The translations under genes were made by a program, and so were the position numbers. A DNA stretch of 64,000 bases from Minisyncoccota bacterium (GTDB lineage Bacteria; Patescibacteriota; Minisyncoccia; Phycocordibacterales; UBA12079). The stretch's first letter is position 1. Every line of letters starts with the position of its first letter. Below, one piece after another: positions 5,051-51,953 of the stretch. Location: positions 7,485-71,484 of the forward strand of contig JAGLLX010000003.1 of the NCBI GenBank assembly GCA_023140255.1, given 5' to 3'. Under the pieces are notes generated by a model. The model did no database searches. It was not told where the DNA came from and worked only from the letters and a program-made list of their open reading frames with translations.

Positions 5051-5087
5051 GAATAATTTATTTTTAGTGTTATAATACAAATTATAT

Positions 5088-5207
5088 GAATCCCGTTAGA
5101 GATTTGGCGGGAAAAAGATTAATAATTTAATTTAAAGATAGTTATTAAAAGTAAGGGACTTGTCCCGTTAGAAAGACTTTTAATAAATTATCTCTAACGG
5201 GATGAAT
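5088..5207. repeat. Dispersed structured element, copy 1 (cccgttagagat ... atctctaacggg-ATG)
   Basis: 12-nt terminal inverted repeats enclose ~95 nt. It contains a second internal copy of cccgttaga. The 3' arm abuts the ATG of ORF 5202. It is ~95% identical to copy 2 at 11335-11452. The hexamer ATGAAT is present at both ends. Confidence 0.7.
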
Positions 5208-35332: not shown

Positions 35333-37717
35333 ATGAAATTTTCATACAAATGGTTAAAAGAATATTTTGAAGAACCTCTACCAGAGATTAAAGACTTGGT
35401 GGAGACTTTGACATTCCATGCCTTTGAAATAGAAGGGGTAGAGAATAATGATTTAATTGATATTGATGTTTTACCTAATCGTTCGCACGACTGTTTTTCT
35501 TATCAAGGAATAGCTAGAGAAATTTCTGTTTTGATTGCTCTAAAGTTAAAACAAAAAGAAACTTCTCTTGTGGTTGAAAAAGATTTAAAATCATCAGAAT
35601 ATATTTCTCTTAAAGTTAACGATTCTAATTTAGCACCAAGAGTTACAAAAAGATTAGTCCAAGGTGTAAAAATAGGGGAATCACCAGATTGGCTAAAAGA
35701 AAAACTTGAATCTATTGGTCAGAAATCTATAAATAATGTAGTTGATATTACTAATTATGTAATGTGGGAAACAGGTCAACCCGTACATGCTTTTGATTTT
35801 GATAAAATTAGTGGAGACGGGGTAAAAGAAATTAGTATTAGAAACGCTGAAAATGGAGAAAAAATAAATACATTAGACGGTGGAGAATATGAATTAGATG
35901 AAAATGTGTTGGTAATTAGTGATAATGAAAAGGCTTTAGATATTGCAGGAGTAAAGGGAGGATTAGTTTCAGGGATTGATGAAAATACTCAAAATATAGT
36001 TTTATCTGTTTGTAACTTTAATCAAACTAATATCAGAAAAACTTCAAGAAAATTAGGTTTAAGAACTGATGCTTCTGTTCGTTTTGAAAATGGAATTTCA
36101 CCTGAAAAAGTTATGGAAGCGATGGAAAGATTATCAGAATTGGTTTTTGAATTAGCTGGAGGAAAGGTATCAGAAGATATTTTAGATATTTATTCTAGAA
36201 AAGTGAATTTATATAAAGTAGGTGTTTCAATTCAGGAAACAAATAAAGTATTAGGGTTAAATTTATTAGAGAAAGAAATAGAGAGTATTTTAAATAAACT
36301 TGATTTTAAATATGAAAAAGTTAGTCCAATTGAGAAAGTTTTGGAACTAGCCTTAAGTCTTGAAAATAAGCTGTACAAATTTGGGGCGAGTGTTTCTTAT
36401 GATTCTCCAGAGTTTTTTGATTGTTCATCTTTTACAGCTTATATTTTTGCCCAAGTTGGAATAGCTATTCCAAGAATTTCTATTGATCAATATTTTTGGG
36501 GAGAAGAAATTTCAGAAGCTGATTTGAAAGCTGGTGATCTAGTCTTTTCTAATAGTGGAGAAGGAAAAATTCATATGGAATCAATAGATTTTAGAAAAGG
36601 GTTAGTAGAAGAGAAAGGAGTTGATCATGTTGGTCTGTATTTAGGGGATGGAAAAGTAATTCATTCTTCTAGAAAAAATGGAGGAGAAGGAAAGGTTAAA
36701 ATAGAAGAATTAAAGAGTGCCGGTCAATTTAAGGATATTATTGATTATAGAAGAATTTCTGATAATCAAGAAAGATTTGTCGTTGAAATTCCTCACGAAA
36801 GATTAGATTTACGAATTAAAGAAGATTTGATTGAAGAAATCGGAAGAATTTATGGTTATAAAAATATTGAATCAGCACCGATTATGGAAATTTTTAAAGC
36901 TAAAGTAAATAAGAGTTTTTATTATATTAATAAAATTAAAGATATTTTAGTGAACGAAGGTTTTAGTGAAGTTTCTACTTATACTTTTGGAGACAAGGGA
37001 AATGTGGAAGTGCAAAAACCTTTAGCTTCTAATTTAGGTTTTTTGAGAACTAATTTAAATAATGGTATTCAAAAATCCTTAGATTTGAATGAGAAAAACG
37101 CTCCTTTACTAGGATTAAATGAAATTAAAATATTTGAAATTGGAAAAGTTTTCCTTGATATTGATGGGGAATATAATGCTTTGGCAATTGGAGTTAGAGT
37201 GGTTAAAAAAAGCAAAAAATCTGATTCTGTGAGAGATGAGATAATTCAAAATATCATAAATACTTTAGATAAAGAATTAAACTTGACGCTCCAAGCGCTA
37301 AGTGATTCTAGATCCAAGGACGGACAAGATGATGTTTTTGAAATTAATTTAGACGAAGTTATTGATAAATTGCCTGAGCCAGAATCTTATGGAGATATTT
37401 TTGATAATTTAAATCAGGAATCTGTGAAATTCCAAAAAATTTCAGCTTATCCATTTATGTTGCGAGATATTGCTGTGTTTGTGCCAAATGAATTTAGTGA
37501 AAATGATTTATTAAAAATAATTACAGAAAATGCAGGAGAGCTTTTGATGCAAACAAAATTATTTGATACTTATAGCCCTGAAGGAGAAGATAAAACTTCT
37601 TATGCTTTTAATTTAGTTTTCCAATCTCAAGAAAAAACTTTGACCGACGAAGAAATAAATAAAGTTATGGATAAAATCACAGCAGAGATTGAATTAAAAG
37701 GCTGGGAAGTAAGATAA
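35333..37717 (+). CDS. pheT: Phenylalanine--tRNA ligase beta subunit with an inserted NlpC/P60 papain-like domain (lacks the N-terminal OB-fold tRNA-binding domain)
   Basis: N-terminal MKFSYKWLKEYF; B3/B4 region (NYVMWETGQPVHAFDFDKI); B5 region; core ERLDLRIKEDLIEEIGRIYGYKNIE; C-terminal FDX-ACB. Between B5 and the core lies an ~130-aa insertion with FDCSSFTAYIF (Cys) and DHVGLYLGDGKVIHSS (His), which is the NlpC/P60 pattern. Confidence 0.8.
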   Translation: MKFSYKWLKEYFEEPLPEIKDLVETLTFHAFEIEGVENNDLIDIDVLPNRSHDCFSYQGIAREISVLIALKLKQKETSLVVEKDLKSSEYISLKVNDSNLAPRVTKRLVQGVKIGESPDWLKEKLESIGQKSINNVVDITNYVMWETGQPVHAFDFDKISGDGVKEISIRNAENGEKINTLDGGEYELDENVLVISDNEKALDIAGVKGGLVSGIDENTQNIVLSVCNFNQTNIRKTSRKLGLRTDASVRFENGISPEKVMEAMERLSELVFELAGGKVSEDILDIYSRKVNLYKVGVSIQETNKVLGLNLLEKEIESILNKLDFKYEKVSPIEKVLELALSLENKLYKFGASVSYDSPEFFDCSSFTAYIFAQVGIAIPRISIDQYFWGEEISEADLKAGDLVFSNSGEGKIHMESIDFRKGLVEEKGVDHVGLYLGDGKVIHSSRKNGGEGKVKIEELKSAGQFKDIIDYRRISDNQERFVVEIPHERLDLRIKEDLIEEIGRIYGYKNIESAPIMEIFKAKVNKSFYYINKIKDILVNEGFSEVSTYTFGDKGNVEVQKPLASNLGFLRTNLNNGIQKSLDLNEKNAPLLGLNEIKIFEIGKVFLDIDGEYNALAIGVRVVKKSKKSDSVRDEIIQNIINTLDKELNLTLQALSDSRSKDGQDDVFEINLDEVIDKLPEPESYGDIFDNLNQESVKFQKISAYPFMLRDIAVFVPNEFSENDLLKIITENAGELLMQTKLFDTYSPEGEDKTSYAFNLVFQSQEKTLTDEEINKVMDKITAEIELKGWEVR

Positions 37718-37808: not shown

Positions 37809-38345
37809 ATGAAATTAAATGTTCCGTATATTTCTCAACGTAGAGATATAATAGATGAATATTGGCAGGAACGAGCTTGCGGAGCGGTTTCTTTGAAAAT
37901 GGTTTTGGACTTCATAAATCCTAATGATATTTTAGTTGATGACTTTGTTAAACAAGCGAGTGACAAAGGTGCTTATAGTGAGAATGGGTGGCTTCATCAA
38001 GGACTTATTAATATTGCAAAAGATTTTGATGTAAGTTTGGAAAGAGAAGAGTTTAAATCAAATGATTTAGAAGAGACTATAATTTTATTACAAAATGGTA
38101 TTGATAAAATTATTGATAATTTGAAAAACAATAAACCTGTTATAATTTCTGCTATTAAAAAATGGACGGAAGAAACAAAATTTCACATGTTGGTTGTAAT
38201 TGGTTTTGAATTAGATGAGAGCAGTGAATTAAAAGGTTTTTATTATCATGATTCTGATTGTAAAACAGATAAAGGAAAAGATTTATTTGTTCCCATAGAA
38301 ACTTTTAGAAAATATTGGAGAAAAATGGCAATTTTTGTTAAATAG
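37809..38345 (+). CDS. C39-like papain-fold cysteine peptidase domain protein
   Basis: VPYISQRRD...ACGAVSLKMVL plus downstream His/Asp (HMLVVIGFE, YYHDSD) fit the Peptidase_C39_2 pattern. Confidence 0.45.
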   Translation: MKLNVPYISQRRDIIDEYWQERACGAVSLKMVLDFINPNDILVDDFVKQASDKGAYSENGWLHQGLINIAKDFDVSLEREEFKSNDLEETIILLQNGIDKIIDNLKNNKPVIISAIKKWTEETKFHMLVVIGFELDESSELKGFYYHDSDCKTDKGKDLFVPIETFRKYWRKMAIFVK

Positions 38346-38367
38346 TAGCGCTTGGAGCACTACTCCT

Positions 38368-38394
38368 AAATGGCTCAAAAAAATGAGCCATTTA
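38368..38394 (+). terminator. Terminator hairpin (the same 27-mer as at 1441), followed by further hairpins to ~38450
   Basis: aaatggctcaaaaaaatgagccattta, then gagccat.../agctcaa.../tgagccgtt repeats. Confidence 0.5.
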
Positions 38395-38550
38395 GGAGGG
38401 CTGGGTTGAGCCATAAAATGCTTGAATAGCTCAATCTTTTGAGCCGTTGAAGTTATTTGGTAACCGGGTTACCAAATTGGGTTTTAGGATTATTAAAAAC
38501 TCCCAATGAAATATATTTCGTTGGGAGTTTTGTTTTAAGATTTTTTTTGG

Positions 38551-39039
38551 CTAACAAACGAATTTACAGCCAAATTTTTCTGCAGTAAGCATTTCACATA
38601 TATCAGGTGGAAAATTAAGAAGTCCACTACTAGTTATCCCGATTGATATTGAAGTTCCAAGAGTACTATTTATAGGATTGTCTTCATCACAGAGACAGTG
38701 TTCTAAAAGTCCTTCATTGCTACTACGGGTTTGTGGGTTGTTGTAAAAATCCACTGCAAATTTGACGATCATTGAGAAAAAGAAACCAAATTCTTCATCT
38801 GAAAGTTCAATTTCTTTCTCGTTGCGATCCAATGTGATTTGGAAAAGCTCGCGGATTTCGTCAATATTTGTGGCAGGTTCTAGTTCATCTAGTTGGTTCA
38901 TAGGAACTGACATTTTCAGTTTGTAGTTGAATTTGATGTTAGCGATTTCTATATAACCTTTATATTGAAAACCACCACGAACTTGCTCCACATATTTTTC
39001 GATAGATACCTCTTGCATTTTCTTCTCCTTTTTTGTCAA
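38551..39039 (-). CDS. Hypothetical protein
   Basis: 162-aa ORF with no recognisable motifs. Confidence 0.3.
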   Translation of the reverse strand: MTKKEKKMQEVSIEKYVEQVRGGFQYKGYIEIANIKFNYKLKMSVPMNQLDELEPATNIDEIRELFQITLDRNEKEIELSDEEFGFFFSMIVKFAVDFYNNPQTRSSNEGLLEHCLCDEDNPINSTLGTSISIGITSSGLLNFPPDICEMLTAEKFGCKFVC

Positions 39040-39271
39040 AAATTAGTTTAAAAATCTTTTACTTCTGGCTTTAATATATCAGGTTATAATGATTTTGTCA
39101 ATACTTTTGGCCGTTGTTTTTGGAGGAATATTCATTAATATCAAAGGTGGTAACTAACACTTTTATTTGATATAATAAAGACATTAAAACATTAAAACAC
39201 GAGAGCATAAAAACAAAATAAATGGGCGTCCTCCTACGGAGGACGCCCACTACTAAAGACTATTAATTATT

Positions 39272-41368
39272 ATGGTTAAAAAAGAAAAAGTAAACGGAGA
39301 ATATAGTGCTAAAGATATATCCGTTTTAGAAGGATTAGAACCAGTTAGAAAGCGTCCTGGAATGTATATTGGAACAACTGGGATTGATGGATTGCATCAT
39401 TTAATTTGGGAAATATTTGATAACTCTCGTGATGAAGCCATGGGTGGTTTTGCTGATACTGTGGAAGTAGCTTTATTGCCTGGGAATAGAATAAGAGTGG
39501 TAGATAACGGACGAGGAATTCCTGTTGATATTCATAAACAAACAAAGGTTTCTGCTTTGGAAACAATTATGACAACTTTACATGCCGGAGGAAAATTTGG
39601 AGGAGATGGATATAAAATTTCTGGAGGACTGCATGGTGTAGGTGCTTCCGTAGTAAACGCTCTTTCTGTGTATACTCGTGTAGAAATTCATAAAGAAGGA
39701 GATATTTATATGCAAGAATATAGTCAGGGTAAACAAAAAGCGAAAGTAAAGAAAATTGCTAAGACAAAAAAGAATGGAACTATTATTATGTTCGAGCCTG
39801 ATATTGAAATATTTAAAGAAATTAAATTTAACTATAATACAGTCTTGAAACATTTGAGAGAGCAAGCTTATTTAGTGAAAGGAATGAGGTTAACTGTTTT
39901 TGATGCTAGGGAATATGAAGGAGAAATAGATTTAAACGAAGCTTTTTATTTAAAAGATTTAAACTTGGATTTACCTTCTACAACTTTTTATTTTGAAGGT
40001 GGTTTATTATCTTTAGTTAAATTCTATAATGCTTACCAAAAACCAGTTCATAAAAATATTTTTTATACTGAAAAAATAATTAATGATAATGGAGAGTCTG
40101 TTGAGATTGCTTTGCAATATGTAGATGATATTTCTTCTCGTGTAGTTACTTTTGCTAATAATATTCCAACTGTTGAGGGTGGAATGCATCTAACTGGTTT
40201 TAAATCAACTTTAACGAGAACTTTAAATGCTTATGCTAGAAAGAATGGTTTACTAAAAGAAAAAGATGAGAATTTCACAGGAGATGATGTTTTGGAAGGG
40301 ATTACTGCTGTTATTTCTATAAAGTTAGCAGAAGTTCAATTTGAGGGTCAGACTAAGGCTAAATTAGGTTCAGTAGAGGCTAGAGGAATGGTGGAAACAG
40401 TCTTCGGAGAAGATTTTGCTTTCTTTTTAGAAGAGAACCCAAATGAAGCGAGATCTATTATAAACAAAGTGAATTTGGCTTTAAGAGCCAGAAAAGCTGC
40501 TAGAGCTGCCAAAGATTCTGTGATTAGAAAAGGTGCTTTAGAGGGGATGACACTTCCAGGGAAATTAGCTGATTGTGCGGCTGGAACAGTTCCTGCTGAT
40601 TCTGAATTATTCATAGTGGAGGGAGATTCTGCTGGCGGTTCTGCTAAACAAGGGAGAGATAGAAGAACTCAAGCAATTTTGCCTTTGAGAGGTAAGATTT
40701 TGAATGTAGAAAGAGCTAGGCTAGATAAGATGTTGTCTTCTCAAGAAATTAAAAATCTTGTGATTGCCCTAGGAACTGCTATTGGTGATACTTTTGAAAT
40801 TGAAAAACTGAGATATCATAAAATTATTATTGCTACCGATGCTGATGTAGACGGAGCTCATATTATGACTTTGTTACTAACTTTATTTTATCGTTATTTC
40901 AAAGAAATAATTGAAGGTGGTTATTTGTATGTAGCCAAACCTCCTTTGTATAAAATTACACATAATAGAAAAGATGTTTATGTTTATTCAGATGAAGAAA
41001 GAGATGAATATTTGAAGAAAAATAAATTAGGAGGGATTGGTGAAGATATTGATAAGGATTCTGACTTATTAACACCTGAGTCATTAGATGAGGTAGGTGA
41101 GGAGGGTGATCAAGATGGAGATGACATTAAAGTGAAAAAAAGTTCCAAGGTTTCAATTCAAAGATACAAAGGTCTTGGAGAAATGAACCCTGAAGAATTA
41201 TACGAGACTACTATGGATGCTGAAAAGAGAGTTTTGAAAAGAATTTTTATAGAAGATGCACAGAAAGCCGATCATACATTTGATATTTTGATGGGTGCTT
41301 TAGTAGCTCCGAGAAAATCTTTTATTCAATCTAATGCTAAGTATGCAGAGATTGATGTTAATGCTTAA
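39272..41368 (+). CDS. gyrB: DNA gyrase subunit B (type IIA topoisomerase ATPase/Toprim subunit) with an acidic C-terminal insertion
   Basis: N-terminus LEGLEPVRKRPGMYIGTTGIDGLHHL, GHKL ATPase, Toprim EGDSAGG, and C-terminus QRYKGLGEMNP. gyrB was preferred over parE by length. No gyrA lies adjacent. Confidence 0.8.
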   Translation: MVKKEKVNGEYSAKDISVLEGLEPVRKRPGMYIGTTGIDGLHHLIWEIFDNSRDEAMGGFADTVEVALLPGNRIRVVDNGRGIPVDIHKQTKVSALETIMTTLHAGGKFGGDGYKISGGLHGVGASVVNALSVYTRVEIHKEGDIYMQEYSQGKQKAKVKKIAKTKKNGTIIMFEPDIEIFKEIKFNYNTVLKHLREQAYLVKGMRLTVFDAREYEGEIDLNEAFYLKDLNLDLPSTTFYFEGGLLSLVKFYNAYQKPVHKNIFYTEKIINDNGESVEIALQYVDDISSRVVTFANNIPTVEGGMHLTGFKSTLTRTLNAYARKNGLLKEKDENFTGDDVLEGITAVISIKLAEVQFEGQTKAKLGSVEARGMVETVFGEDFAFFLEENPNEARSIINKVNLALRARKAARAAKDSVIRKGALEGMTLPGKLADCAAGTVPADSELFIVEGDSAGGSAKQGRDRRTQAILPLRGKILNVERARLDKMLSSQEIKNLVIALGTAIGDTFEIEKLRYHKIIIATDADVDGAHIMTLLLTLFYRYFKEIIEGGYLYVAKPPLYKITHNRKDVYVYSDEERDEYLKKNKLGGIGEDIDKDSDLLTPESLDEVGEEGDQDGDDIKVKKSSKVSIQRYKGLGEMNPEELYETTMDAEKRVLKRIFIEDAQKADHTFDILMGALVAPRKSFIQSNAKYAEIDVNA

Positions 41369-41394
41369 AAGGATTTAGCACTTAAGATAGAAAA

Positions 41395-41432
41395 AGAGCG
41401 ACGGGCTAAAGCCCGTCGCTCTTTTTATTTAG
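41395..41432. terminator. Bidirectional terminator between gyrB and the sortase gene
   Basis: aaaaagagcgacgggc-taaa-gcccgtcgctcttttt. Confidence 0.6.
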
Positions 41433-41437
41433 ATTTT

Positions 41438-42811
41438 TTATTCAATAATATCTATAATATCTATAAATACTTTAGCAATATTATTAGTTTTAGTTACTTC
41501 TTTTATTCCTCCGGAAGGATCAACATTAACGATAACAACCATTTGATCACCAATTCTTAGCTTATCAAATCCCATTGTGAATTCAATCTTTTCTCCAGGG
41601 GCTAATGCTTTTTGCCCTTGTGAATGGAAAATGTGTGCTGGAGATGTAGGTAACACTGCATTAAATGTCCAACCATCTGAAGTTTTTGTTCCTATATTTG
41701 TTACTGTAAATGTTACTGCTCCGATATCTCCTCTAACTAAAGTAGAAGTAGCTATTAAGTCTTTGTTAGAATTTAGGTATCCTATTGTATTAATAGTTGC
41801 CTCTAAGTCAGCCAAACCATATTCAACCACAGGATTAATAACTGGATCGATTATATATTCATATTCTTCCTCTGTTCCTGGGTTAGGATTTATAGGATAA
41901 GGTGAATGGATATTTCCTCCAATATTAGGAGTACCTGTATTGTTCAAAGGTATAACTTTTACAAAGTCAGCTTCTACAACAAATCTATCTTCTTTAGCTC
42001 CTAAAGTATCGCATGTAGAAATAGTAAGTTTTTGAGTATTACTATCTATTCTAATTGCTCCGTTAGCTGTGTTGGTAGCTTTTACACTAGTTACTTTATA
42101 GAAGTATTGGTTATTTGTAGATGTTACAATGATTTCATCACCTTTAACTAAGTTTTCTAAATTATTAAATGTTTTATAATAAGAAGTTTCTGTAGCTAGG
42201 CTTGTACTATGACCAAATATAAATATATTTTTATTTTCACCTAAAAGACCTGATTCAGGATATCTTACAGCTCCTAACTTAAGAGCTTTGTTTAGAGAAT
42301 CTATATCTTTATCTAGAGGATTTATAACAAGAGTGTTTACTCCAATAGCATCAATATTAATTCTTAATGGTTTTTCCAATACAGTTTGATCTTCTCCTTC
42401 TGTTACAATAATAGTATTTCCACTATCTTGTGTACTAATCTTTCTTAGATAAAGCATTGCTGCTGTTAAATCAAATTTATCTGAAATAATATCTAATTTT
42501 TGGAAAAGATTAGGAATAATTTTTGTACTTTGAATAGTTGCTACAGCATAGTGACTTGTAGTAGGGAATACAGAAGAAATAGTTGATATATTTTTAAGAC
42601 TGTAAAAAGAACCAATTAGTAATAGTAATAGTAAGATAGTTGTAGAAAATGAAAGTTTCCATTTCTTAACTAAAGGCATATCTTTGATACTTTTACCAAA
42701 GTTATTACTCTTTGTATATTGATAGAACTTTTTAAGCACCCACCAATCTCCTTGGTAGTCATTGTGTGTGTTTGTTTCTATATGCATTGTAGGTAAATTT
42801 TCTGGTGTCAT
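41438..42811 (-). CDS. Membrane-anchored sortase-family transpeptidase with a C-terminal CARDB-like domain
   Basis: N-terminal TM anchor. Sortase His motif NIFIFGHSTS, catalytic Cys motif QKLTISTCD (TLxTC), and a C-terminal VTNIGTKTSDGWTF CARDB-like beta-sandwich. Confidence 0.55.
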   Translation of the reverse strand: MTPENLPTMHIETNTHNDYQGDWWVLKKFYQYTKSNNFGKSIKDMPLVKKWKLSFSTTILLLLLLIGSFYSLKNISTISSVFPTTSHYAVATIQSTKIIPNLFQKLDIISDKFDLTAAMLYLRKISTQDSGNTIIVTEGEDQTVLEKPLRINIDAIGVNTLVINPLDKDIDSLNKALKLGAVRYPESGLLGENKNIFIFGHSTSLATETSYYKTFNNLENLVKGDEIIVTSTNNQYFYKVTSVKATNTANGAIRIDSNTQKLTISTCDTLGAKEDRFVVEADFVKVIPLNNTGTPNIGGNIHSPYPINPNPGTEEEYEYIIDPVINPVVEYGLADLEATINTIGYLNSNKDLIATSTLVRGDIGAVTFTVTNIGTKTSDGWTFNAVLPTSPAHIFHSQGQKALAPGEKIEFTMGFDKLRIGDQMVVIVNVDPSGGIKEVTKTNNIAKVFIDIIDIIE

Positions 42812-43021
42812 AATATTGTTGTTATTAATAATTTATTATTTTCTTGAATATTACCACTGTGTCTAAATAATGTCAAGGGTTTTTGATAAAGATTTTTAAA
42901 AAAGTTATAAATAAGGAACTTTAGGTTTTTTGCTATTGCTTTTTTTTAATAACAGTTATATAGTATTTAGTAGATAGTAAATTGAGAGTAATTTTACATA
43001 ACCAATAAAAGGAGAAATAAA

Positions 43022-44011
43022 ATGAAGAAATGTTTAGAAGTGTTCGTGGCCGTGGTGATGTTTTTGTTTCTGTGTGGTTCTGTTTCAGCGGAATACATAG
43101 TAAGAACATGTGAAGTTCCGATTTTGCCAGCTACTGGGGCTTTTAACTCAGAGTACCAAGTTGTCGTAAAGGATAGTCTTGGGAATCTGGCAAGAGGAAT
43201 TCCTGTTGCAGGAAGATTCTTGGAACATTTTGGTAATCCAGGGGTTTTGGGAGAAACTCAACGGACAGTTACTGATCAGTATGGAGTGGCAACTTTTACC
43301 ATTCCCGATGCACCGAGACCTACTGATAAAGATAGTTTTTGGTATTTCTCAGTGTGGGCTGATTCAGACTTATATTGTTTGTATCATCAAGTGATTTGGT
43401 GGACAGTGTCCACTGCATTGCCAGCTTATATTTCTTTTGGTGACTTTGGTGGGGTTGTTCCACTGCAGACATCAATGGATTGTTTGGTAACAAATGCTTG
43501 GGGAGTTCCGTTGCCTAATCTTACCATAGAGATTATTGACGGTGCGGAGTATTTTTCTTCGGTGTTTGCTATTACAGATGTTGATGGTGTTGCACATTTT
43601 AGCTTTACTGCTGGGTCTGCTGTTGGATCGGCAAAAATAAAGGCTCAAGTTGAGTTTTTACCGTTTGCTAGGAATACTACTGATATTTCATGGGGGACTC
43701 CTCAGCCGAATCCGGTTTTATCGGGTGATAATATCGTAGCTCAGACAGGTCTTGAGTATGGCTTACCAGTTTTTAGGTTTTCTCAAAATCGTTCTGGTAA
43801 TGCTGGATTCACTCTTCTTGATGAAGATGGAAATCCTATTGTTGGTGAGCAGGTAGAATGTCTTTATCCTGTTTGGAGTGGAGTAACTGATTCCAATGGG
43901 GAATTCAGCGTCCTTATTCCGGCTAGTGGTTTTATTGGTTGGGATGTGTCATGGGTCTGGGTCGTTTCCGATCCAGATACTACTCTTAATTTTAAAATGG
44001 TTTACGAATAG
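43022..44011 (+). CDS. Secreted protein (signal peptide), function unknown
   Basis: Signal peptide MKKCLEVFVAVVMFLFLCGSVSA. Higher GC than its surroundings. Confidence 0.4.
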   Translation: MKKCLEVFVAVVMFLFLCGSVSAEYIVRTCEVPILPATGAFNSEYQVVVKDSLGNLARGIPVAGRFLEHFGNPGVLGETQRTVTDQYGVATFTIPDAPRPTDKDSFWYFSVWADSDLYCLYHQVIWWTVSTALPAYISFGDFGGVVPLQTSMDCLVTNAWGVPLPNLTIEIIDGAEYFSSVFAITDVDGVAHFSFTAGSAVGSAKIKAQVEFLPFARNTTDISWGTPQPNPVLSGDNIVAQTGLEYGLPVFRFSQNRSGNAGFTLLDEDGNPIVGEQVECLYPVWSGVTDSNGEFSVLIPASGFIGWDVSWVWVVSDPDTTLNFKMVYE

Positions 44012-44169
44012 TGAACCAAAACTAACTCTTTAAACGGTTAGTCAAAGTCCTTCAGGTTTGTCATAAACCTGAAGGACTTTTTTGTTTTTTAGTTTAAACC
44101 CTTTACAAATAGATATATATATTGTAGTATTATAGAAAATATTAACATTATTAAATATAAACAGATTTT

Positions 44170-46200
44170 ATGAATAATATATTAAAAATTACAGGTGCGA
44201 TTTTGATTTTAATAGCTATCTTTTTAGGTGGTTCTTTTCTGAATATTTTGGATGGAAATGTAGCTTTGGCTGCTGATGCTCCAACATGTTCAATGAATGC
44301 TATTCCTGCTAATATCATGCAAGGTCAAGCATCAACGATTACTTGGTCTTCTAACAATGCTACTTCAGTATATATACAAAATTTAGGAACTGATATTGGT
44401 ACAGTAGGTCCAGCAGGATCAAGAACGGTTAGACCTACTACTACAACTCTTTATAGAGGAACATTTACAGGTCCAGGAGGAACAATAGTTTGCTCAAGAA
44501 TTGTAAATGTTACTTATCCAGTTACTCCTCCAGATGCACCAACTTGTTCTATGAGTGCTATCCCAAGTAATATCTATCAAGGTGGAAGTGCAACTATTTC
44601 TTGGTCTTCTAATAATGCTACATCAGCATCTATTTCTAATATTGGGACAGTAGCTACTGCAGGTTCAAGAAATGTGAGTCCAAATTCAACTACAACTTAT
44701 ACAGGAACATTCACAGGAGCAGGAGGTTCAGTGACTTGTTCAAGAACAATTACTGTTACCCCTGCGTCTAATCCTGCACCAACTTGTTCTTTGACAGCAA
44801 GCCCATCTTCAATTCACGCAGGAGATAGTTCAACTTTATCTTGGACAGCAACAAATGCTACTTTAGGATATATAGAGAATCTAGGAGCTGATGTAGGAAA
44901 TGTTAATTCTGTTGAAGGTTCAACAATAGTAAACCCAACTACAACATCTCTTTATACAGGAACGTTTACAGGCCCAGGAGGTTCTGTGACTTGTACAGCA
45001 ATGGTAAATATTATTACCATTTGCCCCATGACATGTTCTTTAGGAGCTATCCCTTCTACTATTTATATAGGAGAAAGTGCTACTCTTAATTGGGATTCAG
45101 ACGGAGCTGAAACAGGAACTATTGATAATGGTATTGGTATTGTAGATGTTTCTGGTTCAGTAACCGTTTCTCCTACACAGACAACTACTTACACAGGAAC
45201 ATTTGGATCATATCAAATATGTTGCAGTGAGACAGCAACTTGTTCTACTACTGTTACAGTTCAAGGAACTCCACCACCAGCACCAACATGTTCTATGAAT
45301 GCTGATCCGACTACTATTGATCAAGGTGGATCTTCAACATTAACTTGGACAACTACAAATGTTGCTTCAGTTTCTATTGATAATGGAGTTTCATCTACTA
45401 ATGTAAATGATTCAGAATCTGTTTCTCCAACTTTAAATACAACTTATACAGGAACATTTGTTGGAACTAATGGAGACACAATTTACTGTGATGCTAGTGT
45501 TACAGTTCAAGGAACTCCACCACCAGCACCAACATGTTCTATGAATGCTGATCCGACTACTATTGATCAAGGTGGATCTTCAACATTAACTTGGACAACT
45601 ACAAATGTTGCTTCAGTTTCTGTTGATAATGGAGTTTTATCTACTAATGTAAATGACTCTGAAGGAGTTTTTCCTAATACAAGTATCACTTACACAGGAA
45701 CATTTGTTGGAACGAATGGCGATACTATTTATTGTGATGCAACAGTTACTGTAGAGGGAACTCCACCACCATCTCCAACATGTACTATGAATTTTAATCC
45801 TACAGCAGTGAGAACAGGAGGAAGTTCTACTTTGACATGGACTTCAACAAATACCACTTCAGCAGATATTGATAATGGAGTAGGAACAGTAGATCCTAAT
45901 GATTCAATGTCAATTACACCTCCTGATGCAATGACTTATACAGGAATATTTACAGGACCTTATGGTTCAGTGACTTGTTCTGCTTCAATTTCTGTTAGCT
46001 CAGTTTGTCTTGTAAATTGTGGAGGAGGAAATAATCCACCGAATGTAAGTTTGATGAGTAAACTTTTCCCAGGAGATGATCCTGATCCATCTTATATTTA
46101 TTTGAGCCAAGTACCTTACACAGGATTCTTAGGAAAAATATTAAATGGAGTTAAGTTTATTATGGTTACTGTCCCGACTTTTATTATGGTGAATATTTAA
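44170..46200 (+). CDS. Surface protein with ~7 tandem ~80-aa Cys-containing repeats and a C-terminal VPYTG + hydrophobic tail (candidate sortase substrate)
   Basis: Repeated (A)PTCSMNA.P..I.QG.S.T..W.S.N..S....N.G...........YTGTF.G..G...C. Two units (45259-45504 and 45505-45750) are ~95% identical at the DNA level. The C-terminus is SQVPYTGFLGKILNGVKFIMVTVPTFIMVNI. Confidence 0.5.
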   Translation: MNNILKITGAILILIAIFLGGSFLNILDGNVALAADAPTCSMNAIPANIMQGQASTITWSSNNATSVYIQNLGTDIGTVGPAGSRTVRPTTTTLYRGTFTGPGGTIVCSRIVNVTYPVTPPDAPTCSMSAIPSNIYQGGSATISWSSNNATSASISNIGTVATAGSRNVSPNSTTTYTGTFTGAGGSVTCSRTITVTPASNPAPTCSLTASPSSIHAGDSSTLSWTATNATLGYIENLGADVGNVNSVEGSTIVNPTTTSLYTGTFTGPGGSVTCTAMVNIITICPMTCSLGAIPSTIYIGESATLNWDSDGAETGTIDNGIGIVDVSGSVTVSPTQTTTYTGTFGSYQICCSETATCSTTVTVQGTPPPAPTCSMNADPTTIDQGGSSTLTWTTTNVASVSIDNGVSSTNVNDSESVSPTLNTTYTGTFVGTNGDTIYCDASVTVQGTPPPAPTCSMNADPTTIDQGGSSTLTWTTTNVASVSVDNGVLSTNVNDSEGVFPNTSITYTGTFVGTNGDTIYCDATVTVEGTPPPSPTCTMNFNPTAVRTGGSSTLTWTSTNTTSADIDNGVGTVDPNDSMSITPPDAMTYTGIFTGPYGSVTCSASISVSSVCLVNCGGGNNPPNVSLMSKLFPGDDPDPSYIYLSQVPYTGFLGKILNGVKFIMVTVPTFIMVNI

Positions 46201-46286
46201 AAAATAAAATTTTAAAAGGGCGAGCCGTAGGCTCGCCCTTTTAATTTGTTGTTTTAAAAAAGAAAAGTAGATGTTATATTAAATTA

Positions 46287-47192
46287 ATGCAAAATAATAA
46301 GATTATTGTAATTTTAGGACCAACAGCTTCAGGAAAATCAGATTTAGCTGTTACTTTAGCCCAAAAATATAACGGAGAAATTATCTCAGCTGATTCACGT
46401 CAGGTATATAAAGGTTTAAATATTGGTTCAGGGAAAATAACTAAAAAAGAAATGAAGAATATTCCTCATTATCTTTTAGATATACTTAAACCACAGAGAA
46501 ATTTTTCTGTGGGTCAATTTAAGAAAAAAGCAGATAAGATTATTGAGGATATTTTAAAAAGAGGGAAGCTCCCAATTTTAGTAGGAGGAACTGGTTTTTA
46601 TATTCAGGCAGTTGTAGCTGGAATTATTTTACCTGAAGTGAAGGCTAACTTAGTTCTTAGAAAAGACTTGGCGCTCCGAGCTCCAAGTGAATTATTTTTG
46701 ATGTTAAAGAGAGTAGATCCTGAAAGAGCTAAAAACATTGACGCTAAAAATCCTCGTCGTTTAATTCGAGCAATTGAAATTGCTACAGATTTAGGAAAAG
46801 TTCCATCTTTAAAATTACTTGGTAGTCATACTGCTAATTGGGAAGTGTTGCAAATTGGTGTTAAGACAGATCAAGGCATTTTGAACAAAAGAATTGAGAA
46901 AAGATTTTACAAAAGAGTAAAAGCGGGGATAGTAAAAGAAGCTGAGAATTTACATAAAAAAGGATTAACATATAAAAGAATGTTAGAAATTGGGTTAGCG
47001 CACAAATATATTCCACTCTTACTTAAAAATAAAATTTCTCAGCAGGAATTTATAGATAATTCTATTAAGGAAGAACAAAAATATGCAAAAAGACAAAGAA
47101 CTTGGTTCAAAAAAGATAAAAGAATTGAATGGTTTGAATTAGGAGATTTAAAAAATATTAACAAAAGAATTTCTAATTTTTTAAAAAACTAG
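46287..47192 (+). CDS. miaA: tRNA dimethylallyltransferase
   Basis: GPTASGKSDLAV...ISADSRQVYKGLNIGSGK. Confidence 0.8.
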   Translation: MQNNKIIVILGPTASGKSDLAVTLAQKYNGEIISADSRQVYKGLNIGSGKITKKEMKNIPHYLLDILKPQRNFSVGQFKKKADKIIEDILKRGKLPILVGGTGFYIQAVVAGIILPEVKANLVLRKDLALRAPSELFLMLKRVDPERAKNIDAKNPRRLIRAIEIATDLGKVPSLKLLGSHTANWEVLQIGVKTDQGILNKRIEKRFYKRVKAGIVKEAENLHKKGLTYKRMLEIGLAHKYIPLLLKNKISQQEFIDNSIKEEQKYAKRQRTWFKKDKRIEWFELGDLKNINKRISNFLKN

Positions 47193-47206
47193 GTATAATA
47201 TGTTAC

Positions 47207-48196
47207 ATGAGTATTAAATTAAAACTCTCTATTATTTTGTCTTTTTTGTTTATCTTTAACTTGGTTTCAGCTGAAGCTTTAGAGGTTGGTTTTATTGATA
47301 ATTTTAGGTATTCGCAGGAATCAATTTTTGCCGGGGAAGATATAAGAGTTTATGGTACTTTGCAAAATAATTCTGGTTTTGATCTTCAGGGAATTATTCA
47401 TTTTTATGACAATGAAAAATTTATTGGAGATTTTACTTTTTTTGTAGCTGATGGAAGAATTATTGAAATTTGGACAGATTGGCAGCCAAGTGAAGGAGAG
47501 CATAATTTGGAAGCTAAGATTTCTAGTATTAAAAAATTAGAAATAGCTAAGAATCCTCAGAATATTGAGTTAGAAGAGAATATTTTAATTACAGAAAAAC
47601 AAAATATAGATATTGATACAGATAAAGATGGAATAGGAAATAAAGATGATTTAGATGATGATAATGATGGTTTTTCTGATAAGCAAGAAATAGAAAACGG
47701 AACTGATTCTTTGGTTTTTGATGAATCTGTTTTAGAAACTGAAGATACTGAACAAAGTACTGGAACTGATTCAGAAAATTCTGTAACAAAAACTAAAATA
47801 ACAGGTGATTTATTTGAAAATGTAAAAGATGTAACAAATATTACTTTAGAAAAATCAAAAGAATTAACTGAAAAAACAAAGAATTTTTTAGAAGAACATA
47901 AAGAAGTGATAGATGATGAAATAGAAAAAGATAAAAAAATTGAATTAGCACAAAAAGAATTAGAAGAATCTTCTTCTGATGATTCTGAGCTTTCAGAAGA
48001 GACAGAAGATGGTCTTAATTTTTATACAGCGAGTATCATAGATGCTGTGCCTAGTATGAAAGAAATGTACAGCTTCTTTTTAGGAGTTTTAATTTATATT
48101 TTAAATAGTTGGTGGATATTATTAGGTATTATTTGTTTTGTTCTTTGGTTTTTATTGAGATCAATTAAAAACAAATTAACCTTGAGAAGATTTTAA
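47207..48196 (+). CDS. Secreted/membrane-anchored protein with an Asp-rich Ca-binding-like region
   Basis: Signal peptide. DTDKDGIGNKDDLDDDNDGFSDKQE is thrombospondin-type-3-like. A C-terminal TM helix is present. Confidence 0.4.
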   Translation: MSIKLKLSIILSFLFIFNLVSAEALEVGFIDNFRYSQESIFAGEDIRVYGTLQNNSGFDLQGIIHFYDNEKFIGDFTFFVADGRIIEIWTDWQPSEGEHNLEAKISSIKKLEIAKNPQNIELEENILITEKQNIDIDTDKDGIGNKDDLDDDNDGFSDKQEIENGTDSLVFDESVLETEDTEQSTGTDSENSVTKTKITGDLFENVKDVTNITLEKSKELTEKTKNFLEEHKEVIDDEIEKDKKIELAQKELEESSSDDSELSEETEDGLNFYTASIIDAVPSMKEMYSFFLGVLIYILNSWWILLGIICFVLWFLLRSIKNKLTLRRF

Positions 48197-48314
48197 TTTT
48201 TTGGGGAAAAATAAATTGCTTTTTGCATAAAAATTGATATGATTATTAGCACTGGGATGATTGTCGAGATTGACTCAGAATTGATTATTAAGATAAATAA
48301 GTTTAAAGAATATT

Positions 48315-48683
48315 ATGTCAGAAGTTAAAGATGTTGAGTTTTTAGAATATGTTGTAAAGGAACTAGTAGATAATCCTGAATCAGTAAAGGTTGATAGAAA
48401 AGTTGACGAGATGGGAGTTTTAATTACTCTTGATGTTGACAGAGAAGATATGGGAAAGATTATTGGTAAAAGTGGAAACACTGCCAAGGCGATTAGAACT
48501 TTATTAAGAGTTGTTGGAATGAAAAATAACTCTAGAGTTAACCTAAAAATTAATGAACCAGAAGGAAGCGTTCACCCTGCACCAAGTTATAGCGAAACTC
48601 CTACAGAAGAAGTTTCTGCTCCAGCTCCAGAAATGGACGCAGGAAGTGTAGATGACGCAATGGAAGATTTGAAGTCATTGTAA
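48315..48683 (+). CDS. KH-domain RNA-binding protein (YlqC/UPF0109-like)
   Basis: The GKIIGKSGNTAKAIRTLL GxxG KH motif. Its position just upstream of trmD is typical. Confidence 0.6.
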   Translation: MSEVKDVEFLEYVVKELVDNPESVKVDRKVDEMGVLITLDVDREDMGKIIGKSGNTAKAIRTLLRVVGMKNNSRVNLKINEPEGSVHPAPSYSETPTEEVSAPAPEMDAGSVDDAMEDLKSL

Positions 48684-48763
48684 AAACTAAAAATAAAAGG
48701 GCGACCGCTTTGCGGTCGCCCTTTTTCTTGTGTTCTAATTTAATTATGTTTTAATGTAAACAA

Positions 48764-48852
48764 TGAATCCCGTTAGAGATTTGGCGGGGTCAAAAATTAC
48801 TAATTAAATTAAGATTATTTACTTTTTGTAAATTATCTCTAACGGGATGAAT
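48764..48852. repeat. Dispersed structured element, copy 3 (short form)
   Basis: atgaat-cccgttagagatttggcgggg ... atctctaacggg-ATGAAT. It lacks the internal repeat. The 3' arm abuts the trmD ATG. Confidence 0.65.
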
Positions 48853-49476
48853 TTTCACATAATTACAATTTTCCCAGAATCTTTTGATTCATATTTAAGT
48901 GAGTCTATTTTAGCGCGAGCAATTAAAGATAAGAAAATTAAAATAAAGTTTTATAATCCTCGGGATTATGTAAAAGAAGGAAGGGTAGATTTTAAACCTT
49001 ATGGAGGTGGTCCAGGAATGGTAATGAAAGCAGAACCCGTAATTAAAGCTATCGCTAAAGCAATAGGGAAAAAGAAAGATTTTGGAATTTTGTTTCTGTC
49101 ACCTAGTGGTAAAAAATTTGATAATAATTTAGCCAAACAATATTCAAAGAAATTTAAAGATATCATAATTATCAGTGGAAATTATGAAGGAATAGATTCT
49201 CGTGTAAAAAAAGTGTTTAAGATGCAGGAAATTTCTATTGGAGATTATGTCTTAACAGGTGGAGCTTTGCCGGCGATGGTTTTAATTGATGTCATTTCTC
49301 GTCAGGTAAAAGGAGTTTTGGGAAAGGAGGAATCGTTAGAAGAAAATAGAATTTCAAGTCCAGAAGTTTATACTCGTCCTGGAATAATTAAATATAGAAA
49401 GAAAGAATATAAAGTGCCAAAAATTTTGTTATCTGGTCATCACAAAAAAATTGATGAGTGGAGGGGGAGTCACTAG
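48847..49476 (+). CDS. trmD: tRNA (guanine37-N1)-methyltransferase (short)
   Basis: MNFHIITIFPESF...YGGGPGMVMKAEPV... fits the SPOUT TrmD family. Confidence 0.75.
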   Translation: MNFHIITIFPESFDSYLSESILARAIKDKKIKIKFYNPRDYVKEGRVDFKPYGGGPGMVMKAEPVIKAIAKAIGKKKDFGILFLSPSGKKFDNNLAKQYSKKFKDIIIISGNYEGIDSRVKKVFKMQEISIGDYVLTGGALPAMVLIDVISRQVKGVLGKEESLEENRISSPEVYTRPGIIKYRKKEYKVPKILLSGHHKKIDEWRGSH

Positions 49477-49725
49477 GGCATTAAAACATAAAAACAAAAA
49501 AACAAGACGGGCGAGGCTAAAGCCTCGCCCGTTGTTCTTAAATCCTAAATTTTAATTCTAGAATAATTTTTTGTGGATTTTTTTATTTCTAAAATATAAC
49601 TAGTGCAGTTAACTGCACTATATTCAACTTCTTTTAAAGACAGATTTTGGCGAAGCTAAAATCTGTCTGTTTTTTATGTTCTAGTGTTTTTATGTTTTAA
49701 TGTTCTTATGATATAATTTAATTTA

Positions 49726-50673
49726 ATGTTTAGAAAAAAAATCATAGTCCTAAGAGGAGGGCCTAGTTCAGAATATGAAGTTTCTATGAAAACAGGAACT
49801 AGTATTTTGGAAGCTTTATCAGATGAGAAATATGATATTTCTGATGTGGCTATCACCAAAGATAATAAGTGGTTTTTGGATGGTGTAGAAAAAACTCCTT
49901 CTGAAATATTAAAAAAATGTGATTTAGTTTTTAATGCCTTACACGGAGAATACGGAGAAGATGGAAAATTACAAAAATTCTTGGATACTTTTGGTGTGCC
50001 TTATACAGGGTCTAAAAACATTCCATCAGCTTTGGCGATGAATAAAATTTTAGCTAAAAAAGAGTATCAAAAAGCTGACATAAAAACTCCTATTCATTTA
50101 GAAATAGAAAAAGATAATTTCAGTATTGCAGAAATATTTAAAACTTTTCCTATGCCAGCAGTAATTAAACCAATTGGTTTAGGTTCTTCTGTGGGGGTAA
50201 GTATTGTTCAGACAGGAATAGAATTAGATAAGGTTTTGCAGGATGTTTTTGAGTATTCTGACAAAGCAATGATAGAAGAATATATTGAAGGGAAGGAGGC
50301 GACCTGTGGAGTGATTGATAATTTCAGAGGAGAAGAAGTTTACACATTACTTCCTGTGGAAATTATTCCAGAAAGTGGTTTTTTTGATTATGAATCAAAA
50401 TACGGAGGAGGTACTCAAGAAATCTGTCCAGGAAATTTCAGTGAAGCTGAAAAGAAAGAAATTCAGGATTTAGCAAAAAAAGCCCATCAAACTTTAGGTT
50501 TAAGAGATTATTCTCGTTCAGACTTTATTATTTCGCCAAAAAGAGGTATATATATATTGGAAACAAATTCTCTTCCAGGTTTAACTAAAGAATCTCTTTT
50601 CCCGAAATCTTTAGATGCTATTGGAAGTAATTTGGAAGAGTTCGTAGAACATTTAATAAATATTAACAAGTAA
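49726..50673 (+). CDS. ddl: D-alanine--D-alanine ligase
   Basis: IIVLRGGPSSEYEVSMKTG N-terminus and an ATP-grasp core. Confidence 0.8.
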   Translation: MFRKKIIVLRGGPSSEYEVSMKTGTSILEALSDEKYDISDVAITKDNKWFLDGVEKTPSEILKKCDLVFNALHGEYGEDGKLQKFLDTFGVPYTGSKNIPSALAMNKILAKKEYQKADIKTPIHLEIEKDNFSIAEIFKTFPMPAVIKPIGLGSSVGVSIVQTGIELDKVLQDVFEYSDKAMIEEYIEGKEATCGVIDNFRGEEVYTLLPVEIIPESGFFDYESKYGGGTQEICPGNFSEAEKKEIQDLAKKAHQTLGLRDYSRSDFIISPKRGIYILETNSLPGLTKESLFPKSLDAIGSNLEEFVEHLININK

Positions 50674-50685
50674 TAAGATAAAACT

Positions 50686-51015
50686 ATGTCAAAAACAACT
50701 GATGTTACAAGTGAAAATTTTAAAGAAGAAGTTTTGGATTCAAATATTCCAGTATTAGTAGATTTTTGGGCTCCTTGGTGTCAGCCATGTTTAATGATGG
50801 GACCTGTTTTAGATGAATTAGCTGAAGATTTGGAAGGGAAGTTAAAAATCGTAAAAATAAATACAGAAATAATGGATAACCAAAATTTAGCAATTGAATA
50901 TCAAATTCAAAGTATTCCTAATATGAAATTATTTAAGAATGGAGCTGTGGCTAAAGATTATATCGGTTTAAGACAAAAAGAAATATTTAAACAAGAATTA
51001 AAATTAGAACTTTAA
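50686..51015 (+). CDS. trxA: Thioredoxin
   Basis: WAPWCQPC active site. 109 aa. Confidence 0.85.
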   Translation: MSKTTDVTSENFKEEVLDSNIPVLVDFWAPWCQPCLMMGPVLDELAEDLEGKLKIVKINTEIMDNQNLAIEYQIQSIPNMKLFKNGAVAKDYIGLRQKEIFKQELKLEL

Positions 51016-51020
51016 AAAAT

Positions 51021-51953
51021 ATGTCTGATAAAAAAACAAAATACCCTTTAATAATTATTGGAACAGGCCCTGCAGGATTGATGGCTTCAGTTTATGCTTC
51101 TCGTTATAAAATAGAACACCTGATGATAGGGGAATTTTTGGGAGGAATGATTATTGGAGCTCATAAAATCGGTAATTTCCCTGCAGAAAAAGAAATTTCT
51201 GGGATTGAATTGATTACTAGAATGAAAGAACAGGTGGATTCTTTGGGAGTTACAATGGTGCATAACAAGGTCGCTGATATTAAAAAAGAAGGTCAAGATT
51301 TTAAAATAACTACTCAAAACGGAAAAGAATTTCAGGCAGAGGCAATTCTTTTGGCTAACGGAACTGAAAATCGTAAATTAAATCTACCAAATGAAGATGA
51401 TTTTTTGGGTAAGGGGGTGTCATATTGTGCTACTTGTGACGCAATGTTTTTCCGCGATAAAATAGTGGTTGTTGTTGGTGGAAGTGATAGTGCTAATATG
51501 GCTTCATTATATTTAGCCGATGTTGCTAAAAAAGTTTATCAAATTTACCGTGGAGATAATTTGAAAGGAGAAGTTTTGAGAATTGAAAAAATAAAGAATA
51601 ACTCAAAAATAGAAGTAATTTATAATACGGAAGTTATGGCTTTGGTGGGAGATGGTAAGTTAGAAAAAGTTATTTTAAGTAATTCATATAACGGGCAAGA
51701 TGAACTTGTAGTTGATGGAATGTTTGTAGAAATCGGAACTATTCCTCAAGGGGAATTGGCTGAAGCTTTGTCTGTGGAAGTTGATGAAAAAAAATATATT
51801 AAAGTTGGAACTGATCAAAAAACAAATCAAGAGGGAGTTTGGGCAGCGGGGGATATTACAACAGGGTCAAATAATTTTCATCAAGTAATTACTGCTTGTA
51901 GTGAAGGAGCTATCGCCGCTGAATCTATTTTTAAATTTCTTCAGAATAAATAA
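51021..51953 (+). CDS. trxB: Thioredoxin-disulfide reductase
   Basis: FAD motif GTGPAGL and redox centre CATCDA. Confidence 0.85.
   Translation: MSDKKTKYPLIIIGTGPAGLMASVYASRYKIEHLMIGEFLGGMIIGAHKIGNFPAEKEISGIELITRMKEQVDSLGVTMVHNKVADIKKEGQDFKITTQNGKEFQAEAILLANGTENRKLNLPNEDDFLGKGVSYCATCDAMFFRDKIVVVVGGSDSANMASLYLADVAKKVYQIYRGDNLKGEVLRIEKIKNNSKIEVIYNTEVMALVGDGKLEKVILSNSYNGQDELVVDGMFVEIGTIPQGELAEALSVEVDEKKYIKVGTDQKTNQEGVWAAGDITTGSNNFHQVITACSEGAIAAESIFKFLQNK

Follow-up and report, generated by a model that had tools for sequence, protein, structure and literature searches.

We propose that a locus in a 64,000-nucleotide stretch of contig JAGLLX010000003.1 (Minisyncoccota bacterium, assembly GCA_023140255.1; the whole stretch is hereafter the window) encodes what is probably a dedicated sortase/substrate pair of an ultra-small bacterium of Candidatus Paceibacterota, within the Candidate Phyla Radiation (CPR), with [VI]PYT[GA] as its sorting signal. 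The enzyme is a membrane-anchored sortase fused to a CARDB-like domain, and the putative substrate is a divergently encoded protein of 676 residues, made of immunoglobulin (Ig)-like repeats and ending in YLSQVPYTG plus a short tail. It is believed that the CPR bacteria, or Patescibacteria, live attached to host cells, and the construction of their surfaces is little understood. The window has a guanine-plus-cytosine (GC) content of about 30% and contains the housekeeping genes gyrB, miaA, trmD, ddl, pheST and leuS; its peptidoglycan-related genes are ddl and YceG/MltG. An initial annotation had read three open reading frames (ORFs) at this locus, one for a sortase and two for secreted proteins divergent from it. 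All three are present in their places, both secreted products have Sec-type N-termini, and the pairing of a sortase with a dedicated surface-protein substrate is well supported by hidden Markov model (HMM) scores and by the linkage of motif and sortase described below.

The enzyme gene and its surroundings comprise the following features, in window coordinates.

41438-42811 (minus strand): sortase::CARDB-like fusion of 457 residues, type II membrane topology; from Pfam, TIGR01076 and the NCBI name
42593-42649 (minus strand): membrane anchor, residues 55-73, with a Lys-rich cytoplasmic segment before it; from the AlphaFold2 (AF2) helix and flanking charges
41966-42361 (minus strand): sortase catalytic domain, residues 151-282; invariant triad, predicted local distance difference test (pLDDT) 80-95, Foldseek
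42209-42211, 42011-42013 and 41984-41986 (minus strand): catalytic triad His201, Cys267 and Arg276, respectively, invariant in homologs
41447-41809 (minus strand): CARDB-like beta-sandwich domain, residues 335-455; PF07705, invariant columns, pLDDT 70-86
42848-42876 (minus strand): promoter-like site of the sortase gene, TTGACA-17-TGnTAATAT, a consensus match only (10/12 positions plus the extended -10 TG)
41391-41426 (both strands): bidirectional terminator hairpin between the convergent gyrB and sortase genes

ORF 41438-42811 does encode a sortase: its product is anchored in the membrane, keeps the His-Cys-Arg triad intact and carries a fused CARDB-like Ig domain. Its residues 151-282 match PF04203 (Sortase) at 73.9 bits against a cutoff of 26.6, and TIGR01076 is the sole NCBIfam sortase model passed (40.7 against 39.35 bits); a match of this kind, above curated cutoffs, was what the initial annotation had itself named as the test of its sortase call. 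At NCBI, the 457-residue ORF has a 100% identical counterpart under the name 'sortase [Candidatus Pacebacteria bacterium]'. The motifs FIFGHSTS and KLTISTCD, from which the call had been made, are confirmed, and an invariant Arg joins them: His201, Cys267 and Arg276 do not vary across an alignment of 30 homologs. The C-terminal CARDB-like domain had been correctly named as well, with 27.5 bits to PF07705 (cutoff 22.7, residues 356-446), and in the same alignment it is conserved more strongly than the catalytic part, with many invariant columns. The AF2 model contains a sortase core (pLDDT 80-95), an all-beta C-terminal domain at residues 336-453 (pLDDT 70-86) and a helix at residues 55-73, the predicted N-terminal membrane anchor; the lysines N-terminal of this helix indicate that the N-terminus lies inside and the catalytic domain outside. 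The cytoplasmic N-terminus (42788-42811, minus strand) carries a strongly conserved M[PT]PENLPT followed by DWW (alignment A1), kept even in homologs of 40% identity (VPENLP, APNNLP), which resembles an LPxT motif but is located on the cytoplasmic side of the anchor.

Assignment to a sortase class was rejected, as neither the NCBIfam models nor Foldseek favour one. None of the class-specific NCBIfam models (A-F, GN) was reached, the highest being class D at 41.7 against 165 bits, followed by C (34.9/160), E (33.3/160), GN (21.4/158), F (17.4/166) and B (11.1/154), and in Foldseek the model matched sortases of classes A, E, D and C to a similar degree (E 3e-9 to 1e-7, TM(target) 0.55-0.81). The closest solved structures by sequence are 4D70 (E 2.5e-6) and 2KW8 (E 1.3e-5). 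The presence of a sortase in the CPR is by itself ordinary: over half of all CPR genomes encode such an enzyme (PMC6744442), and the rarity implied by the initial annotation for such organisms does not hold.

The gene of the putative substrate is organised as follows.

44170-46200 (plus strand): putative sortase substrate, 676 residues, with signal peptide, seven Ig-like units, Gly/Pro stalk, motif and tail
44281-46020 (plus strand): seven Ig-like repeat units, residues 38-617, a Cys pair in each
46018-46092 (plus strand): conserved Cys/Gly/Pro-rich stalk (CGGGNNPPNVSL...DPDPS), from alignment A3; predicted disordered
46093-46125 (plus strand): putative sorting motif YIYLSQVPYTG, residues 642-652, from the 130-site consensus and sortase adjacency; predicted cleavage at Thr651/Gly652
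46126-46197 (plus strand): 24-residue conserved post-motif tail FLGKILNGVKFIMVTVPTFIMVNI, from homologous tails; no typical membrane helix and no basic end
46212-46244 (plus strand): intrinsic terminator after the substrate gene, a 15-bp stem with 8 GC pairs, then a T run

The protein thus ends in ...YIYLSQVPYTG followed by FLGKILNGVKFIMVTVPTFIMVNI, after which come the stop codon and the strong terminator hairpin. Over 130 non-redundant sites the consensus of the motif is [FY]-[VI]-Y-L-S-Q-[VI]-P-Y-T-G (L in 98%, Q in 80%, [VI] in 87%), and about 70 of the best 120 homologs of the repeat protein carry [VI]PYTG within ...[FY][VI]YLSQ.... Set beside LPXTG, VPYTG keeps P, T and G, has V or I for L and an invariant Tyr at X. 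What follows the motif varies: among the 130 sites there is a helix plus more than 125 residues in 81, a helix plus 46-125 residues in 19, a hydrophobic segment with a basic end in 13 and a short helix-less tail in 17. A profile of the C-terminal module, run against 1.84 billion representative proteins, found 66 proteins at E<=1e-3; the complete module with a window-type tail occurs in only about nine clusters, the others having stalk and motif and then a membrane helix. When typical PYTG proteins were scanned, the motif/transmembrane (TM) region was not covered by any Pfam or NCBIfam model.

The argument that this block is a sorting signal comes from its neighbours. Two samples were used, one of 47 loci collected by sortase from reference genomes and metagenomes, and one of eight PYTG proteins picked without regard to sortase. 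In the first, every sortase-CARDB locus with at least about 5.5 kb of upstream sequence encodes a divergent YLSQ[VI]PYT[GA] protein (L002, L003, L005, L006, L007, L009, L010, L016, L017, L031, L035-L038 and L040), and L039 has a PYT[GA] protein despite only 2.7 kb upstream. L034 has no PYT[GA] protein and its sortase runs off the contig end, and in L001, L004, L018 and L029 it is the repeat protein or substrate that runs off the contig. PYTG proteins flank most of the CARDB-less sortases as well (L011, L012 and, from Adlerbacteria, L014, L015 and L047), with L041 as the one exception. In the substrate-first sample a sortase lies within about 2 kb of the PYTG protein in seven of the eight, the eighth (L054) being at a contig end. 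The linked sortases span only 37-76% identity. In these loci no other candidate substrate was seen, and the accessory proteins examined are without such a motif. The initial annotation had staked its reading on the existence of other proteins with a VPYTG-type C-terminus; there are many, nearly always adjoining a sortase.

The third constant member is the CARDB-like protein, which is a separate neighbouring gene in L041, L044, L049-L053 and L055; for the substrate-first sample it is a separate gene in all six profile-checked loci and, by precomputed Pfam annotation, on the P0039 contig. The recurrent block is gyrB / CARDB-like / sortase / PYTG protein, beyond which an aminoacyl-tRNA synthetase gene and dnaE are usually found. 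Because a PYT[GA] protein shares its locus beside gyrB with both a sortase and a CARDB-like protein in all informative sortase-first loci except one and in all seven informative substrate-first loci, across divergent lineages of Patescibacteria, YLSQ[VI]PYTG is very probably the cognate sorting signal. Since the CARDB-like protein and the sortase are separate neighbours elsewhere, the window enzyme is a fusion of two ancestrally neighbouring genes, an argument for joint action of the CARDB-like protein and the sortase. We rejected the idea that the CARDB domain is specific to helix-less tails, as CARDB-like partners also accompany substrates with a true helix. Two further arrangements were seen in the sampled loci. 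In L054 (61-5285) three tandem genes of 658, 693 and 222 residues (stop-to-stop ORFs) each carry the PYTG module followed by a helix plus 48-99 residues. Directly downstream of the Campbellbacteria sortase-CARDB gene in L010 (11636-21046) and L040 (9636-17045) is a giant ORF of more than 3100 residues that runs off the locus; its internal VPYTG stands in a different context and is probably a chance match.

The canonical sorting signal, which we define after PMC8703055, consists of LPXTG near the C-terminus, a hydrophobic segment of about 20 residues and a positively charged end, and the tails of the PYTG proteins depart from it to different degrees. In subclade A, whose sortases are 45-76% identical to the window enzyme, the tails have 16-25 residues and 2-6 charged residues, end in [FI]F[IF]M[AV]N, and at least one accessory secreted beta-rich protein is encoded between sortase and substrate. 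Subclade B, with sortases about 40-46% identical, has IPYTG and a 29-residue hydrophobic tail with one central Arg and a K-x-K/R end (e.g. KIK), close to the canonical tripartite signal, and its loci have no accessory gene. In the lineages with unfused sortases, [LF][DE]xGP and then a genuine membrane helix come after the motif. The window tail ends in ...FIMVNI where the clade consensus end is ...FIM[AV]N, and AF2 models it at low confidence (pLDDT about 50) as three short strands (653-658, 661-668 and 671-674). Judged from the homologs, the tail of the fused-enzyme clade appears to be a short, conserved, charge-containing segment and not a membrane helix. This statement has to rest on the homologs because no tail of its class is more hydrophobic than that of the window, whose uncharged run is 14 residues long against 5-10 in homologous tails, some of which have only 16 residues with 4-5 charges. 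Correlations between tail class and other traits also rest on few independent evolutionary events. The earlier description of a non-canonical VPYTG signal with a hydrophobic tail therefore stands for the motif and for the missing basic end, and not for a membrane-helix type of anchor in this clade; it had also missed that the signal is conserved throughout the clade and that related lineages encode the CARDB-like domain as a partner of its own. Many of the long-extension PYTG proteins (P0098, P0140, P0150, P0165, P0188, P0196 and others; L055 10001-13285) end in ...Y.SPFTG[VI]KLALAQAFE..., which puts another conserved xP[FY]TG-like site 12-13 residues before the end of the protein, presumably on the cytoplasmic side.

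The 676-residue protein itself starts with a Sec-type N-terminus (...VALA|AD) and reaches no Pfam or NCBIfam family above cutoff. The roughly seven repeats with two Cys that had been proposed are seven units of 80-90 residues with two Cys apiece. Against the Pfam gathering scores of PKD, Big, I-set and related families no unit qualified, the scores being 16.1/26.5 for DUF7933 and 13/27 bits for Ig_ADGRF3. Prediction of the structure of a single unit, a check suggested in the initial annotation, gave for unit 7 a confident eight-strand beta-sandwich (pLDDT 91-97), whose Foldseek matches are generic Ig/PKD-like folds at E>=1e-3 (Dscam, titin I-set and an archaeal S-layer PKD domain). A count over 590 full-length units, taken from 120 homologous proteins, gave both Cys in 346, neither in 240 and one in 4, and in units of PYTG-bearing proteins both are present in 314/314; this covariation supports one disulfide per unit.

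In the mechanism that best fits these parts, the repeat protein would be exported by Sec and then fold with stabilisation by its disulfides. The sortase would recognise [VI]PYT[GA], the equivalent of LPXTG, in the region spanning EPSYIYLSQVPYTGFLGK, cleave after Thr651 and hold the protein as a thioester on Cys267. The Ig-repeat fibre would then be passed to an amine of the envelope, most plausibly that of a peptidoglycan precursor (genes for Ddl and YceG/MltG are in the window), and the outcome would be a covalently tethered, stalked, adhesin-like surface fibre whose length may change through recombination between units (1-8 in orthologs). In the fused sortase::CARDB clade a short conserved tail would take the place of the usual membrane helix of the substrate. 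As an extension of this model, the helix-less, beta-hairpin-like tail (...NG.KFIMV.VP.FIM.N) might dock by strand addition on the CARDB-like domain or on an Ig-like accessory protein and so bring PYTG to the active site, making it a membrane-independent sorting signal, and YLSQ[VI]PYTG might be a general signal of the Paceibacteria-type CPR, including proteins that leave a large membrane-embedded or cytoplasmic remnant; we offer this extension tentatively and hold it to be doubtful as a whole.

Several points weigh against the sortase/substrate pair. What has been observed is the parts list and the linkage, and from these we infer cleavage, the nature of the acceptor and what the CARDB-like protein and the tail do. 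The sortase fits no class with a known acceptor. Canonical signals retain the substrate at the membrane by an uncharged stretch of about 20 residues and a basic end; the window tail has neither, so that two of the three canonical features fail, and the LPXTG-anchor HMMs PF00746 and TIGR01167 gave no match to the window protein at E<=1 or to eight typical PYTG+TM proteins at E<=10. Finally, at 81 of the 130 sites the motif precedes a genuine membrane helix with more than 125 further residues behind it, an arrangement that to our knowledge is not seen in classical sortase substrates, and the motif could have another role. These last three observations are also what would favour a different explanation, in which YLSQ[VI]PYTG is a stalk or juxtamembrane element unrelated to the sortase (a fold junction, or a site for glycosylation or another protease) and the sortase acts on other proteins. 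We consider this unlikely, given that xPxTG is placed relative to the C-terminal hydrophobic segment as in LPXTG proteins, that the linkage to sortases appears in both sampling directions and across such divergent enzymes, that neither a rival substrate nor a motif in the accessory proteins was seen, and that the subclade B tails are nearly canonical.

The lysine content bears on whether the sortase instead builds a pilus or heteropolymer by joining Thr651, in class C fashion, to a Lys of the repeat protein itself or of the 329-residue Ig-like protein encoded beside it. Every subclade A locus does have accessory secreted Ig-like proteins, the 329-residue protein has seven Lys, and a substrate that has no membrane anchor looks as if it were passed to a partner. 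The 618-residue mature repeat protein, however, has a single Lys (K631) at a non-conserved position of the stalk, its ortholog P0044 has none, and a YPK pilin motif was looked for and not found. Homopolymerisation is effectively excluded by this scarcity of Lys, on which ground we rejected the pilin reading; the pilin-like option of the initial annotation also meets a locus with one PYTG protein only, a class C model far below its cutoff (34.9 against 160 bits) and accessory families (X, Y and Z) that vary between loci, and we regard pilus assembly in any form as quite improbable. That the sortase is a processing or release protease, with the tail as a pro-peptide and hydrolysis freeing a soluble or non-covalently bound Ig-repeat protein, is likewise very unlikely: sortases can hydrolyse the acyl-enzyme if no nucleophile is available, and the tail has neither membrane helix nor basic end, but the Gly/Pro-rich stalk ahead of the motif is typical of wall-spanning parts of anchored proteins, the system is conserved alongside wall-synthesis genes and the catalytic triad is indistinguishable from that of transpeptidases.

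Among known systems, the proposed sortase/substrate pair most resembles the Gram-positive housekeeping sortases of class A, D and E with their LPXTG substrates, with which it shares a membrane-anchored enzyme of beta-barrel fold with a His-Cys-Arg triad and a substrate with Sec signal, Gly/Pro-rich stalk, C-terminal xPxTG and hydrophobic-leaning tail. It differs from them in that [VI]PYT[GA] sits inside a longer conserved [FY][VI]YLSQ block, in that no class HMM cutoff is reached and 4D70 and 2KW8 are matched only at E of about 1e-6 to 1e-5, in the fused or partnered CARDB-like domain, and in a window tail that has neither an uncharged helix of about 20 residues nor a basic end. The class GN 'marine' sortase (TIGR03784) is similarly encoded beside a single target with a variant motif, but TIGR03784 scores 21.4 against 158 bits here, lineage and motif are others, and the present system has a third conserved partner, the CARDB-like protein, and a housekeeping synteny by gyrB. 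Pili assembled by class C sortases share the clustering of secreted Ig-like proteins with a sortase and differ in what is found here: one motif-bearing protein, no conserved pilin lysine and a class C model far under cutoff. The Pam pili of Saccharimonadia and Microgenomatia are assembled by chaperone-mediated donor-strand exchange independently of sortase (bioRxiv 10.64898/2026.03.03.709456). They too are CPR-specific surface structures of Ig-like domains, and Ig strand exchange thus operates in CPR envelopes, but no sortase is used and no sequence relationship was found here; a relationship to this sortase-independent system was rejected.

A clade-wide PYTG signal, an obligatory CARDB-like partner and a helix-less tail variant all appear to be undescribed. 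Published work on CPR surface sorting records only that sortases are encoded; 'sortase motifs' are named, without definition, for CPR surface proteins (PMC5220378), and in the open-access literature we found no description of VPYTG or IPYTG as a signal, an earlier account elsewhere being possible. Should YLSQ[VI]PYT[GA] prove to be the cognate signal, sequence alone would suffice to predict which surface proteins depend on sortase in much of the radiation, and this would yield candidate host-attachment proteins. Furthermore, a CARDB-like partner and a helix-less tail would widen the rules of sortase recognition, with relevance to sortase-based protein engineering.

Between the sortase and the repeat gene is the accessory gene, with the following features.

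43022-44011 (plus strand): secreted accessory protein of 329 residues with Big_1/CarboxypepD_reg-like Ig folds, signal peptide MKKCLEVFVAVVMFLFLCGSVSA
44044-44080: intrinsic-terminator-like hairpin after the 329-residue gene (plus strand), a 17-bp stem, then a T run
44102-44130: promoter-like site 3' of this hairpin

With the hairpin behind the accessory gene, the repeat gene is probably transcribed separately. The 329-residue protein scores 49 bits to Pfam Big_1. A homology search with it returned no match but itself, and in a phmmer search of the ORFs of the fetched loci its homologs adjoin the sortase in 15 related loci. The accessory secreted beta-rich proteins fall into three families (X, Y and Z), of which the window has the Big_1-like family only. 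These genes had been described as more GC-rich than their surroundings, which is so (the window has 0.30, the 329-residue gene 0.42 and the repeat gene 0.37), but only the 329-residue gene is unusual at the third codon position (GC3). In the repeat gene the surplus is wholly at codon position 2 (0.58) and GC3 is only 0.124, where the window averages 0.175 ± 0.04; its higher GC follows from a composition rich in Thr, Ser, Gly and Pro, and a foreign origin was rejected, as GC3 lies below the mean. In the 329-residue gene GC is raised at all three positions, with GC3 at 0.30, about 3 standard deviations (sd) above the mean, and this gene may be a more recent acquisition or have a different codon usage. 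A GC3 of 0.29-0.30 (about 3 sd over the mean of 0.175) is seen in three genes of the window, 43022-44011 (plus strand), 6812-8119 and 38551-39018.

The repeat array was said to be expanding by a very recent duplication, with two units about 95% identical. This pair is listed here in the register of the units.

45283-45774 (plus strand): units 5 and 6, a similar pair of 87.8% identity, mosaic

Measured identity is 88-90%: 89.8% in the register of the initial annotation (25/246 mismatches), 87.8% in the unit register (30/246) and 89% by Tandem Repeats Finder (TRF). The two units share 124 nucleotides at 100% (45252-45375 and 45498-45621), a block that takes in 31 nucleotides ahead of the unit boundary, and outside it identity falls to about 80%; codon differences number 12 synonymous and 11 non-synonymous, and all remaining unit pairs are 56-69% identical. 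Given this mosaic identity we prefer an older, partly homogenised pair and reject a fresh tandem duplication. The best database match, P0035 (594 residues), is the 676-residue protein minus one unit; its contig, L048, comes from a second assembly of the same strain and has exactly one unit fewer than the window. This contig is 100% identical to window 38170-45375 and 45622-52200, with the junction inside the shared 124-nucleotide block. This one-unit difference may be either a collapse in short-read assembly or an unequal recombination within one population, and both are equally possible. Since the P0035 contig is otherwise identical and its junction falls in the shared block, the shorter variant is no proof of expansion. 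In the L016 and L017 assemblies the substrate differs by exactly one 80-residue Ig unit, and it starts with short SNSGVSP-type tandem repeats before the Ig units (3977-5482).

Some neighbouring genes of the window deserve mention. Downstream of the repeat gene, 47207-48196 (plus strand) encodes a strongly acidic secreted protein that carries a bacterial TSP3 repeat and ends in a genuine membrane helix with a basic tail (...RSIKNKLTLRRF); it has LNFYTAS before the helix, without the Pro of PYT[GA], and is probably no substrate. On the gyrB side, a Peptidase_C39_2-like protein of 170-180 residues is encoded at 37809-38345 (plus strand) and also in L004, L028, L029, L034 and L048, and the order pheT / C39-like / gyrB / sortase is a conserved synteny in this lineage. 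The PheT homolog (35333-37717, plus strand) has an NlpC/P60 domain (64 bits, residues 348-463) inserted between B3_4 and B5, and PheT genes of similar length occur in related loci. Finally, a VirD4/TrwB-like coupling ATPase gene (8210-9871, plus strand) overlaps by 29 nucleotides the start of 9843-11288 (plus strand), which encodes a surface protein with Lamin-tail and PKD domains and hydrophobic segments at both ends.

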